Shown: positions 17,245-62,852 of the stretch, in pieces
Position numbering within the stretch: position 1 is the first letter of the stretch
How the letters are laid out: each line of letters begins with the position of its first letter
Sequence record: PZ496581.1
Direction: 5' to 3' (one strand)
From: a phage
DNA length: 64,000 nucleotides
Made by a program: the position numbers and the translations under genes
The notes under the pieces: generated by a model
What the model saw: only the letters and a program-made list of their open reading frames with translations
The model's database searches: none
Told to the model about the DNA's origin: nothing

Positions 17245-18558
17245 TCAAATAAAATGGACGTCAAACCGACCACGAGTTGTGCCGACGTACAATAACTGTT
17301 TAGCTAATTCTGAATCAGCATAATGGATACACGGTGTATAAACAAAGGCCGTGTCAACAGACATACCCTGGGCCTTATGGAAGGTTGATACTGGTAGTGC
17401 CTTCACCTTAGTGAACATACGTTTAGCATCCCAGAATTCGCTCCATGGAGCTTTACCGCCTTTATTCCAGAATTTGTATGTTTCTGCGGTCTTAGCCAAA
17501 AACAAATTGAATTTATAAAGCTCTTCTTCAGAAGAAATAACCTTTATATCTTCGCGGATATATTCTTCATCATCCCCATATGTTTCTACTGTAAGATTCC
17601 AGTATCGTATCATATATTCGCCTGAAACACCACGTGCTTTAACGAATGTAGACGTTTCTACAGCATCTCGAATACGAACGAATTGCCCGTTATTGAAAAG
17701 CATTTCGGTCATATTTTTACCATCTAGCTTATATGTCTTAGTAAATGGCTCTTGTAGAACAATGACTTCGTCTTTAATAAATGGTTTTTCTGTTTCAAGA
17801 AGTTTTCGGCGAATAATTGAATTTAACTTATCCACCGACTTATTTGTGAATGCCATCATTCGATTTTCGAAAAGGTCTTCAGGAGTTTTAACGACGTTAA
17901 AATAGTTCATCATATACGATTTAAGGTCTGTATATCCATGAACACCGTGCCCATCAACTACTTTATCGTAAATCCATTTGCCATTACGAATATCAGTCGC
18001 AACATCAATAATTGGTGCATTGCTACGTTTAACTTCTGTAAGGTTGCATTGCACGAAGTCTTTGTGAGTGAAGAAAGGACTTAGATACGCAGTTGATTCG
18101 CCTGGGTCTACCGGTCGAATCTGACATCGGTCACCAATTCCAATTACTGTGCACCATTTAGGGATACTAGCTAACATTATTTTAAACAGAGAACGGTCGC
18201 ACATTGACGCTTCATCAAATAACAGTACACGACACAAGGCTAAGTCGGGAACCTTTTTCTGTTCAAACAATACGTTTTCTTCGTATGTAGTTGGGTTGAT
18301 TTTAAGAATGCTATGAATAGTCGATGCTTCTTGACCCGCAAGTTTGCTTAGAACCTTTTTAGCAGCATGTGTAGGGGCTGCTAAAATAATACCTGATTCT
18401 CCAGAAGAAATAAGGGCTTCAACGATGAATCTAGTAAGGGTTGTTTTACCTGTACCAGCGGGCCCATTAATAGTTACATGATGTTTCTTTTCTTTAATAG
18501 CGTTCATAACAACGTTGAAGGCGTTTTTCTGGCCTTCAGTCAAATCATCAAATGTCAT
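17245..18558 (-). CDS. dda: Dda DNA helicase (SF1B)
   Basis: 437 aa; Walker A INGPAGTGKTT, Walker B LLFDEASM; T4 Dda size. Confidence 0.9.
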   Translation of the reverse strand: MTFDDLTEGQKNAFNVVMNAIKEKKHHVTINGPAGTGKTTLTRFIVEALISSGESGIILAAPTHAAKKVLSKLAGQEASTIHSILKINPTTYEENVLFEQKKVPDLALCRVLLFDEASMCDRSLFKIMLASIPKWCTVIGIGDRCQIRPVDPGESTAYLSPFFTHKDFVQCNLTEVKRSNAPIIDVATDIRNGKWIYDKVVDGHGVHGYTDLKSYMMNYFNVVKTPEDLFENRMMAFTNKSVDKLNSIIRRKLLETEKPFIKDEVIVLQEPFTKTYKLDGKNMTEMLFNNGQFVRIRDAVETSTFVKARGVSGEYMIRYWNLTVETYGDDEEYIREDIKVISSEEELYKFNLFLAKTAETYKFWNKGGKAPWSEFWDAKRMFTKVKALPVSTFHKAQGMSVDTAFVYTPCIHYADSELAKQLLYVGTTRGRFDVHFI

Positions 18559-22597: not shown

Positions 22598-22834
22598 TTA
22601 ACCATTTACTGGTGTAGGGGTAAACATTGCAGCGTTCTTAGTTTTCCAGTCAGCTGCATCAGAAACTACAGTAGAATAAGCTGCCTTTTCTGATGGAAAG
22701 ATTTGGTAATGAGAATCTGCAATCCGATGTTCGTTTGAATAAATCTCAAACGGCACAGAAACTTCCATACCTTTAACTTCTTTACTTTCACCAGCAGGAT
22801 GCGTAAAGGTTTTGATGTTTACATAACCACCAAT
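22598..22834 (-). CDS. soc: small outer capsid protein Soc; no canonical start codon
   Basis: Hand-translated ...GGYVNIKTFTHPAGESKEVKGMEVSVPFEIYSNEHRIADSHYQIFPSEKAAYSTVV...; AAGGAG SD then ATT ATT GGT; below ORF-track cutoff. Confidence 0.7.
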   Translation of the reverse strand: MGGYVNIKTFTHPAGESKEVKGMEVSVPFEIYSNEHRIADSHYQIFPSEKAAYSTVVSDAADWKTKNAAMFTPTPVNG

Positions 22835-23087: not shown

Positions 23088-23608
23088 TAATAACCTCGGT
23101 CTTGGCGAGCGAAGTTTTCAGCATTCTTCAGATAATACAGTTTGAAGATTTCTTCAGCAGAAAGTCCCAGACCTTGGAACATATTTAGAACGAAATGCAG
23201 AATATCAATCATTTCAAATTTAATTTCAAGCTGGTCTTCAGGAGACAGTTCATCGATACGACGATTTCGATATTCAGCATGTTGTGCTTTCCATGGCTTC
23301 CATACAGAGCTAGCGGCTTTCTCACCATTGCTCATACCGCCAAGTGAAGTCAGCAGTTCACGGAATTCATCATCAATATAATCTTTCTGATTACGCAGCC
23401 AATCAACAACATCGCCAGCAGTAGCCAATTCATCAGGATGTTTGTTATGTTCAGGCTTGTCATTTGCCAGACGAACCTGTAAAGATTTCTGCATATCAAG
23501 CATTACCTGCAGTGGGTCTTTATCTTCGTGAATCAGAGCATTAAAATAAGCTTCTTCTGCTTTATCAACACCAGAAATAAGTTGTGAACATTCGTTAAAG
23601 TGCGCCAT
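23087..23608 (-). CDS. 56: dCTP pyrophosphatase (dCTPase/dUTPase)
   Basis: Trimmed to ATG (MAHFNEC...); ...LQVMLDMQ...ETAGDVV.W...DDEFRELLTSLG...EEIFKLYYLKN.ENFARQDRGY matches T4 gp56 as recalled. Confidence 0.9.
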   Translation of the reverse strand: MAHFNECSQLISGVDKAEEAYFNALIHEDKDPLQVMLDMQKSLQVRLANDKPEHNKHPDELATAGDVVDWLRNQKDYIDDEFRELLTSLGGMSNGEKAASSVWKPWKAQHAEYRNRRIDELSPEDQLEIKFEMIDILHFVLNMFQGLGLSAEEIFKLYYLKNAENFARQDRGY

Positions 23609-23696
23609 TATTTTTCCTTTCAATTCAGTATAAGAGAGTTAATTCTAACATTAATTTTATAAAGCGTAATAAATAATAGGTAACTAAGGAGATATT

Positions 23697-23894
23697 ATGT
23701 TTAAACTTCCATCGTTAATCAACGCTATTAAAGGCAATAAAAAGAAAACTGCTATCGCTGCAATAGTTGTAGGTGGCATTATTTCATGGAACTTCGGGAT
23801 TGCACCATTGTTAGTTGCCCATGGTGTTATGGTTCCTTCTGTTCCATTGGATACTGTAGTTGATTTGGCCTTTGCTATTATAGGGCTTGTTTAA
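23697..23894 (+). CDS. small hydrophobic protein, plus strand
   Basis: 65 aa; AAGGAG 5 nt upstream of ATG; only convincing plus-strand ORF in window. Confidence 0.4.
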   Translation: MFKLPSLINAIKGNKKKTAIAAIVVGGIISWNFGIAPLLVAHGVMVPSVPLDTVVDLAFAIIGLV

Positions 23895-24913
23895 ATCTTC
23901 GAATAACGAGATAATCTCATTTTAGCATGCAACCCACTTGAAATATTCTGTTTCATATATTCTAAAATTTCTTGTGGTGTTGCATTTTCTTTCATTACCA
24001 TATCATTCACATCCTTTGATCTCCATGGAGCTCGGTCCCAGAACATGACACGTTCGCCTGCATTAACTAATCGCTTCATGCGAGCTATAGTATCCGGATG
24101 CCTAGGTTCATTATCCATTACCCATACCCGACGTTCTTTAAATGGTACCACATCTAAATCTATTGAGCCGCCTGTAATAGCGATTGCATTGGGTATGAAT
24201 AAACTATCAATAGGACCTTCCATTACCCAGACGTCTCCTTCCTTAACACGTTCAACACCATAAATTTTTGTTGCAGATTCAAAAGCTTTAATAGTGATAT
24301 ATTTTTGAGGAGCATCTTTACGAAGTGCACGTCCTTGGAATGACTCGGCCTTCCCATCTTTATTAAAAATAGGAATAACTAAACGCGGTTCAGGAATCTC
24401 TTTCTTATATGTGCCAGGTTGAATCTTGTTGACCAATTTAGGCCATTCTAATGTGAACCATAATCTGTTCCATGATTCTTTAGGAATGCATCTAGACTTA
24501 ACATATTTCACAATAGGATGCTCTTCAGGCAGCTTGTCCAGACGAGAACAAGACGGCAAAGAATTTATAGTCTTTTTTTCCGGCTCCGGCTTAGCTTCAG
24601 GAACCTTTTCAATCTTTGGTTCCATTCTAGCTTTTTCTTTACGAACTTCCATTAGATATTCGCGATAAAGCTCTTCATCATACTCTTTTAAGTATCCGGA
24701 AATTGTATTGTGGTATTGACAGTTATAGCAATGTACATTACCAGGAGTACCGCCATAATACCATCCGCGAGCTTTCATTGCATCTGTCTGGGAGTCGCCA
24801 CAAACTGGACAACGAAACGTTAATTTAAATGTGCTTGAATTATTGATTTGTCTAAAACGAGGGAGGTGAGAAAACGCACGATAAGCAAATTCATTATCTA
24901 TCCATTCAGCCAT
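23891..24913 (-). CDS. 61: DNA primase
   Basis: 340 aa; N-terminal zinc ribbon FRCPVCGDS...HCYNC; T4 gp61 size and position. Confidence 0.9.
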   Translation of the reverse strand: MAEWIDNEFAYRAFSHLPRFRQINNSSTFKLTFRCPVCGDSQTDAMKARGWYYGGTPGNVHCYNCQYHNTISGYLKEYDEELYREYLMEVRKEKARMEPKIEKVPEAKPEPEKKTINSLPSCSRLDKLPEEHPIVKYVKSRCIPKESWNRLWFTLEWPKLVNKIQPGTYKKEIPEPRLVIPIFNKDGKAESFQGRALRKDAPQKYITIKAFESATKIYGVERVKEGDVWVMEGPIDSLFIPNAIAITGGSIDLDVVPFKERRVWVMDNEPRHPDTIARMKRLVNAGERVMFWDRAPWRSKDVNDMVMKENATPQEILEYMKQNISSGLHAKMRLSRYSKI

Positions 24914-61568: not shown

Positions 61569-61834
61569 TTACTTATCGCACTTAGCAACATAATTAGGCA
61601 TATCACAGAATACAGAGCGAGTAACTACTCGGCCCTTTGACCATGCTTCAGTTGCTTGTCCGGCCGTGCTATTAATATAGCTTGATTTAAGTTCTCAATA
61701 CCCTGAGAATGTGATGCATTTACCGAACCATTGGAAGGCCCAGAAGACTGGTTACCACCAGCTCCTGCACCTGTGGTAGCACCAACAGAGAATGCCATCA
61801 TTACTGCGAATAAACCAATTACTAATTTTTTCAT
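61569..61834 (-). CDS. secreted small protein with apparent frame break
   Basis: Signal peptide MKKLVIGLFAVMMAFSVGA; protein-like C-terminus ...TAGQATEAWSKGRVVTRSVFCDMPNYVAKCDK is in another frame. Confidence 0.35.
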
Positions 61835-61865
61835 ATTTACCTCAAGTTAAGGGTTATTTATCTAT

Positions 61866-62852
61866 TTATTTATAGTAAGAATTATGATTTTCGAGATAGA
61901 CTTGCTCAAGGAAATCATCCCAGAAACTCATATCTACTTTTTGTTGCATACCGTTCTTAGCGGCTTGTTCTGACGCATGTTCAACTTGGTCAACGATATC
62001 TTCTAGGAATTCTTGTACAGTTTTAAACGTATGTTTACCAAGCTTAACATCGAGAATAAATGGAGCATCCTGAAGTGGGTAAACCAGGTCGCCGGTTTTG
62101 TAAATTTCCAATAATTGAAGTCCACCACGACATGCATGACTCAATGCTTTCCAGTCAATACCTTCGTTGGCTTCCGCCTTACGAGCACGTTCACCGTAGT
62201 TCTCTTCCAGTTTAACCAGGATGGCATTGAACTCTTTATTGGTTAACGTATCTTGGAATTTACGATCTAACAGATTATAGAATGTTTGCTTACCTGTTTT
62301 CTCGTTTTCGGTTTCAACCCACGAAGCAAATTCACCTACAGGCAGAACATTCTTCATATGTGATAAACGAATTACTGCACCGTTATCAAAGTATTGTCCC
62401 CATTCATTAGAACGTTTAAGGGCTTGACGAAGAACAGCCAGTCGAGAACCCTTGACGCCGTATTTAGAAGCTTGCTTACGGACATACCCTAAATAAGATT
62501 TCATGTTAGTGGTATAGAAACGAGACCTGTTATCTTGAATATACTTCCATACATCAGGCAAATCAGATTTAACTACTAGACTTTGTGGAGTGTGAAGCAT
62601 ATCTAATGCGACGGTTTCACCATCCGCGGCTAGTTTAAAGAAATATTTGAGACTATACAACTCATGGTCCACGTCGTCTTTTGTGTTCTTAGAAGATGTG
62701 TTATTCGTGTTCTTGCTCATGTGTTCTTTAACGTTACCGGTCAAGATATCACGAGCATGAGGGACATAAATTTCTTTAAAATCGACGTCAGATTCAGGAG
62801 TAGACGTTCCATAAAGGTGGCTACCAAAGTAAGCCTTAACAATAGTTTTCAT
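61866..62852 (-). CDS. nucleotidyltransferase-fold protein
   Basis: 328 aa; N-terminal GS...x9...DVD minimal NTase motif (AYFGSHLYGTSTPESDVDF). Confidence 0.5.
   Translation of the reverse strand: MKTIVKAYFGSHLYGTSTPESDVDFKEIYVPHARDILTGNVKEHMSKNTNNTSSKNTKDDVDHELYSLKYFFKLAADGETVALDMLHTPQSLVVKSDLPDVWKYIQDNRSRFYTTNMKSYLGYVRKQASKYGVKGSRLAVLRQALKRSNEWGQYFDNGAVIRLSHMKNVLPVGEFASWVETENEKTGKQTFYNLLDRKFQDTLTNKEFNAILVKLEENYGERARKAEANEGIDWKALSHACRGGLQLLEIYKTGDLVYPLQDAPFILDVKLGKHTFKTVQEFLEDIVDQVEHASEQAAKNGMQQKVDMSFWDDFLEQVYLENHNSYYK

Follow-up and report, generated by a model that had tools for sequence, protein, structure and literature searches.

Within a block of minus-strand genes in a 64,000-nucleotide stretch of phage DNA (sequence record PZ496581.1; hereafter the window), a single short open reading frame (ORF) on the plus strand lies between gene 56 (dCTPase) and the primase gene 61. 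Its position raises the question of whether it is a gene at all and, if so, when it is expressed and what its product does. A first-pass annotation had taken it for a late-expressed membrane peptide or an antisense regulator.

The small ORF and its prior record

The ORF is 65 codons long, occupies positions 23697..23894 on the plus strand and ends in a TAA at 23892-23894. Its ATG at 23697 follows the Shine-Dalgarno sequence AAGGAG (23686..23691, +) after the 5-nt spacer ATATT, and both the reading frame and its start context are therefore as first described. The primase gene 61 lies on the opposite strand (23891..24913, -) and its coding sequence ends at 23891, so that the stop codons of the two convergent genes overlap within TTTAAA, sharing the 4 nt at 23891..23894; the ORF does indeed end opposite the primase stop. 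On its other side gene 56, also on the minus strand, starts at 23608, and the divergent control region between gene 56 and the small ORF measures 88 nt. That the ORF stands alone on the plus strand in a minus-strand block is strongly borne out by RB69, where the first 50 kb carry 95 features and the ortholog is the sole CDS among them on the plus strand. The ORF list contains no long overlapping ORF on the opposite strand of the small ORF. In DNA of 37% GC the length of a 65-codon ORF is not by itself significant.

Over 2 kb the window shares 96.6-97.7% nucleotide identity with phages moha, SHSML-52-1 and RB69, and by sequence its phage is RB69-like (Mosigvirus), of the T-even type. The protein encoded by the window ORF is 95.4% identical to that of RB69ORF029w, which has the same position and orientation, and its residues 1-65 match positions 1-65 of the 65-position profile of PHROG 2024 ('unknown function'; E=2.6e-27). 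RB69ORF029w was reported as a novel ORF, negative by SignalP and with a predicted transmembrane (TM) helix at residues 21-41 (Nolan 2006, PMC1524935), and the window ORF had thus already been catalogued, without an assigned function. To the record of RB69ORF029w and PHROG 2024 the present analysis adds the spread of the gene over at least seven Tevenvirinae lineages, an unannotated copy in T4 included, and a conserved, sub-consensus late-promoter-like element for which the 2006 study made no call, together with a predicted architecture that is consistently N-in/C-out and has an invariant Trp-Asn pair within the membrane. Literature searches found no papers on ORF029w or on plausible T4-style gene names, and nothing relevant on new small ORFs in T4 from ribosome profiling or proteogenomics. 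The label 'putative head morphogenesis protein' in the T6 RefSeq record was rejected, the neighbouring product names in that record being clearly scrambled.

Conservation and selection

Conservation in related genomes, which the first-pass annotation had proposed as a check, was found as syntenic orthologs in at least seven Tevenvirinae lineages. By tblastn the 65-aa protein is contained in 859 phage records; proteins 95-100% identical to it occur in more than 130 phage records, identity is 52-56% in T4-type phages, and further lineages were linked when a divergent ortholog served as the query. Plus-strand orthologs are present in T4, T6, Gaprivervirus, a Yersinia phage, Moonvirus, Jiaodavirus, Gelderlandvirus and IMG/VR contigs. 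All loci inspected (RB69, T6, one Gaprivervirus, the Yersinia phage, Moonvirus, two Jiaodavirus, Gelderlandvirus and 14 IMG/VR contigs) carry a plus-strand ORF of 61-69 aa between the gene 56 side and the primase 3' end. The left-side neighbour varies between gene 56, dam and a homing endonuclease gene, and since the small ORF is retained whilst its neighbours vary, it behaves as an independent cassette.

Nei-Gojobori dN/dS values for ten ortholog pairs ranged from 0.10 to 0.48, synonymous sites being saturated between genera in these pairs, and M1, W31, N32, P37, G43, P47 and G63 are invariant across ten diverse ortholog sequences. Judged by these comparisons, the small ORF is a protein-coding gene under purifying selection, and a genuine, vertically conserved accessory gene of the Tevenvirinae.

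A separate observation concerns the surroundings of the gene. Both flanks are insertion hot spots, with homing endonuclease genes or dam found on the gene 56 side or the primase side according to lineage (inserted genes in the comparison loci: L005 2786-3553, L009 1708-2262, L012 771-1421 and L004 2347-3126).

A late-promoter-like element upstream of the gene

The resemblance to a T4 late promoter that had been remarked upon upstream of the ORF resides in AATAAATA at 23668..23675 (+), which matches the T4 sequence TATAAATA at seven of eight positions. Every ortholog examined has either NATAAATA (its first base being A, G or C) or ATTAAATA at a distance of 12-33 nt before its start, as well as a Shine-Dalgarno sequence, AGGAGG or AAGGAG, separated from the start by 4-6 nt; in the Moonvirus and Gelderlandvirus orthologs the motif is ATTAAATA, with two mismatches. 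A perfect TATAAATA upstream of the small ORF occurs in no lineage examined, and this sub-consensus state of the motif in every lineage suggests low expression. In a pair of T4-like loci whose left flanks are unrelated, homology sets in about 4 nt upstream of GATAAATA, which places the motif within the conserved cassette.

The core of the motif is scarce elsewhere. ATAAATA occurs seven times on the two strands of the 64-kb window against an expectation of 27.7 +/- 5.6 from dinucleotide-preserving shuffles, an approximately four-fold depletion, and positions 1-50 kb of RB69 hold four NATAAATA sites where about 30 would be expected. Avoidance of the late-promoter core elsewhere implies selection against spurious late promoters. 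The other copies in the window are found upstream of soc (one), gene 49 (endonuclease VII; one) and a small secreted ORF (three, overlapping), and inside asiA (one), whilst three of the four RB69 sites immediately precede soc, ORF029w and gene 49; across the window and RB69 1-50 kb, copies of the core sit almost all directly upstream of gene starts.

Within the window, soc and gene 49 are preceded by the same AATAAATA variant as the small ORF. The soc promoter reads TATAAATA in RB69, T4, T6, P8 and KP1079, and AATAAATA in the window, KM16 and a Proteus phage. In RB69, variants with a base other than T at -13 precede inh (AATAAATA) and alt (CATAAATA), and an A or T at -13 has been described for RB69-type late promoters in a study whose HMM scan of RB69 called no late promoter at ORF029w (Nolan 2006, PMC1524935). 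A simple sigma-70 scan found no plus-strand promoter upstream of the small ORF. The element upstream of the ORF is probably a gp55-type late promoter, with a predicted transcription start at about 23680-23683 and a leader of about 15 nt. As T4-type late genes located in the early region, soc and gene 49 resemble the small ORF in having NATAAATA 20-31 nt ahead of the start codon and then a strong Shine-Dalgarno sequence; they share the strand of the early genes, however, whereas the small ORF lies on the opposite strand, converges on the primase and has a motif short of consensus wherever it was examined.

Abutting the plus-strand late-promoter motif, the minus strand carries a MotA-box-like CGCTTTA separated by 12 bp from TAGAAT (23642..23666). 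Set against the middle-promoter consensus (a/t)(a/t)(a/t)TGCTTtA, which lies 12 +/- 1 bp from a -10 element (Hinton 2010), this divergent site would appear to fit as a middle promoter for gene 56. In T6-type loci the same place is taken by a perfect TGCTTTA-N11-TATAAT, with the ATAAATA motif of the other strand falling within the spacer.

Two further observations were made in the window. Its soc gene (CDS 22598..22834, -) has ATT at 22832-22834 in place of the ATG start present in RB69 and 10 other relatives, the Shine-Dalgarno sequence, reading frame and remainder of the gene being intact; possible explanations are non-canonical initiation, a soc-down variant and an error in sequencing. At 61855-61874 (-), overlapping TATAAATA, AATAAATA and GATAAATA lie upstream of a 69-aa ORF (61625..61834) with an N-terminal signal-like sequence and a match to PHROG 2243 (unknown function), which may encode another small late-expressed envelope protein.

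Predicted architecture and topology of the product

The hydrophobic character ascribed to the peptide is real, the top 19-residue Kyte-Doolittle window scoring 1.93. AlphaFold2, run on a shallow alignment, returned a model with a mean pLDDT of 79 in which a short, basic N-terminal helix (residues 3-11) is followed by a 27-residue helix (15-41) and a short, amphipathic, acidic helix (51-62), the Pro-rich loop HGVMVPSVP (42-50) connecting the last two. The predicted TM helix (~15-41) contains the invariant W31-N32 and P37, with the Trp-Asn pair towards its predicted periplasmic end. In six lineages the N-terminal flank carries 5-6 K/R and the C-terminal flank 0-1 K/R together with 1-2 D/E, and this bias predicts an N-in/C-out topology. 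The 65-aa product is thus predicted to be, most likely, a bitopic single-pass inner-membrane protein. Of the late-expressed membrane peptide originally proposed, the membrane part is well supported by inference from purifying selection, the one predicted TM helix and the positive-inside bias, whilst late expression is a prediction from the conserved motif.

A polar Asn inside a TM helix typically drives helix-helix association, and from the invariance of the intramembrane Asn we infer that the protein acts by binding a partner or by self-association. Searches of Pfam, NCBIfam and PADLOC gave no match for the 65-aa protein, a PDB profile search gave chance TM matches only (E >= 0.18) and Foldseek against BFVD returned orthologs only. 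A word-indexed search of 5.8 billion proteins recovered seven close clusters only, and an HMMER profile search of 1.84 billion representatives two clusters only, both consisting of family members. As these resources (Pfam, NCBIfam, PADLOC, PDB and BFVD) yielded no characterised homologue, any functional assignment is a guess.

The same hydrophobic segment might be read as a long cleavable signal peptide, from which signal peptidase I, cutting after G43, would free an active periplasmic peptide of about 22 aa, VMVPSVPLDTVVDLAFAIIGLV. The conserved (A/T)-(H/Y/N)-G satisfies the -3/-1 rule in all lineages, with a small residue (A or T) at -3 and Gly at -1, and cleavage would also be in keeping with the basic n-region, the Pro at -7 and the residue other than Pro at +1. 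We nevertheless consider this improbable: RB69ORF029w is negative by SignalP (Nolan 2006, PMC1524935), a hydrophobic stretch of about 25 residues in a total of 43 goes far beyond typical signal peptides (h-region 7-15), and W31, N32 and P37, the most conserved residues, fall in the part that cleavage would discard.

Dispensability and the holin question

For a membrane-anchored protein of this size, a second holin or a pinholin-like hole-former comes to mind. T-even-type phages already encode holin T. Like the holins (T4 T, class I/II and the phage 21 pinholin), the product is a small phage membrane protein and presumably late; a single TM helix and a promoter predicted to be late also fit, and 'holin' labels are attached to it in phage KP1079 and in UniProt A0A482MZV5. 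These labels were rejected as unsupported submitter annotations. The 65-aa protein differs from holins in having no sequence or profile similarity to them and no charged, hydrophilic cytoplasmic C-terminal tail, its C-terminal 22-24 residues being hydrophobic and acidic, with 0-1 K/R, and predicted to be periplasmic. Nor is the gene linked to lysis genes, since it is flanked by those for dCTPase and primase with no endolysin or other lysis gene adjacent.

The data of a HIDEN-SEQ transposon sequencing preprint on Bas37, a relative of T4, also bear on this point (bioRxiv 10.1101/2025.11.20.689424). There, bas37_0144 is a 201-nt plus-strand gene with a 4-nt primase stop overlap, and by position and size we infer that this 66-aa gene is the Bas37 ortholog. 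Insertions are listed for it at 20 of 24 TA sites and it is classed as 'Non-essential'; in three host comparisons its log2FC values were +0.33, +0.20 and -0.28, all with q=1 and with no host-specific depletion, and passages of the main text that highlight conditionally essential genes do not include it (bioRxiv 10.1101/2025.11.20.689424). As bas37_0144 is non-essential in these data, the gene is accessory under the conditions used. This putative ortholog is thus listed as tolerating insertions, whereas T4 gene e is essential in the same study (bioRxiv 10.1101/2025.11.20.689424), and in view of these differences a role as hole-former carries little probability. An inner-membrane accessory protein remains our preferred reading of the product.

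Convergence on the primase and the antisense reading

The proposal of an antisense regulator was not supported, the amino-acid sequence being conserved and the primase overlap lost in several lineages. What it would entail is a plus-strand late transcript acting mainly as a cis-antisense RNA that pairs with the 3' end of the primase (gene 61) mRNA and lowers it late in infection, the peptide being incidental. In the window, RB69, T4, T6, KM16 and a Proteus phage the layout lends itself to this: the genes converge, their stop codons overlap (by 4 nt in each of the relatives, as in the window) and there is no intergenic terminator, so that a plus-strand transcript must enter gene 61 by at least 35-95 nt before reaching a candidate hairpin. 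In P8, UPEC07 and Jiaodavirus, however, the overlap with gene 61 is absent. In Yersinia phage P8 the ortholog and gene 61 are kept apart by a homing endonuclease gene of 768 bp; UPEC07 has 118 nt between them, including a 9-bp hairpin, and Jiaodavirus 18 nt, including a GC hairpin. Because the overlap is not conserved, an antisense role is unlikely. Purifying selection acts on the amino-acid sequence, the strong Shine-Dalgarno sequence is conserved and Rfam gave no match over 23300-24300, all of which also count against this reading, and we rate it as very unlikely.

A terminator scan found none after the small ORF. The candidate hairpin (23927..23986, +) lies inside the primase coding region, within its last ~35 codons, and is followed by the U-rich run UUUUCUUUC; its fold has a z of -2.2, whilst minus-strand RNA over the region shows no unusual degree of structure (z = +1.4). 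The equivalent T4 hairpin (L004 3475-3527) has a z of -2.8 and includes G-U pairs that can form only in plus-strand RNA. The hairpin is conserved in the T4/RB69/P8 group only; no consensus structure was obtained across eight lineages, and there was almost no covariation in the T4/RB69/P8 subset. It could conceivably terminate or stabilise the plus-strand transcript; a conserved terminator hairpin in the primase 3' end was considered and rejected as unsupported across lineages.

That the ORF is a chance occurrence yielding no product, in the spacer (3' untranslated or intercistronic) that separates genes 61 and 56, might be suggested by the wealth of short ORFs in AT-rich DNA (69 ORFs of at least 30 aa in 8 kb) and by its omission from the T4 reference annotation. 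The comparative data effectively refute this reading: the ORF keeps its length, frame, start context and motif where synonymous sites are saturated, dN/dS is well below 1 and the ORF persists across changed neighbours.

A model for the gene and its likeness to known systems

Taken as a whole, the reading of RB69ORF029w and its orthologs as a conserved, late-expressed inner-membrane accessory gene is in our judgement a likely one. Late in infection, RNA polymerase carrying gp55, the late sigma factor of the phage, would start at the sub-consensus late promoter AATAAATA, giving an mRNA with a short leader and a strong Shine-Dalgarno sequence. The 65-aa protein would cross the inner membrane once, in N-in/C-out orientation, with its basic N-terminus in the cytoplasm and a Pro-rich, acidic tail of about 22 residues, bearing a short amphipathic helix, facing the periplasm. 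The Trp-Asn pair, Pro37 and the (A/T)-(H/Y)-G...P..P-L-(D/E) segment would then serve to bind a membrane partner or to self-associate rather than to catalyse a reaction.

What process such a protein might serve can only be guessed at; tentatively, it could help in an accessory capacity to modulate some envelope process late in infection, for example the timing or inhibition of lysis, the integrity of the membrane, or exclusion. More speculatively still, and with correspondingly greater doubt, it might be an unrecognised component of T-even envelope control, a partner of the lysis-inhibition machinery of holin T and antiholin RI or of membrane-bound prohead assembly, produced at low dose from a weak late promoter and acting via its Trp-Asn pair.

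Among known phage proteins, Imm, Sp (spackle) and RI are, like the 65-aa protein, short, located at the inner membrane or periplasm and of accessory, non-essential function, and all are encoded in its genome neighbourhood, imm and sp at a distance of 2-3 kb. None of the three has sequence similarity to it. Imm and Sp are early proteins encoded on the minus strand, and RI has a folded periplasmic domain, whereas the 65-aa protein is predicted to expose no more than about 22 residues to the periplasm. A likeness in build is offered by bacterial small membrane regulators such as MgrB, a bitopic, N-in/C-out protein of 47 aa that is similar in size, has a single TM helix and a short periplasmic tail, and binds a larger membrane protein. 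There is no homology between MgrB and the 65-aa protein, which by analogy would likely act in the same manner, through TM and juxtamembrane contacts.

The overlooked T4 copy and its significance

The T4 ortholog is a 66-aa plus-strand ORF at approximately 17,738-17,938 of NC_000866 (L004 3239-3439), within the 310-bp gap between dam and gene 61, and is annotated neither in that record nor in KJ477684 (T4 'wild'). Being unannotated, it is missing from gene-level T4 datasets, including the HIDEN-SEQ T4 table, which has nothing between dam and gene 61. A different irregularity was seen in T6 (NC_054907; L003 2492-2506), where the first start of the ortholog is ATT, against ATG in T4 and in three T6-like IMG/VR contigs, and the annotated start is consequently a downstream ATG, 22 nt from the Shine-Dalgarno sequence.

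The impact to be expected from these findings is modest, the gene having already been catalogued as hypothetical and being non-essential in the one relative tested. T4 is nonetheless the reference system for the biology of virulent phages, and yet a conserved gene drops out of its omics and essentiality tables. Recording this gene as real, and as probably late and membrane-inserted, would close a small annotation gap and nominate a tractable candidate for accessory envelope or lysis functions that have yet to be explained.
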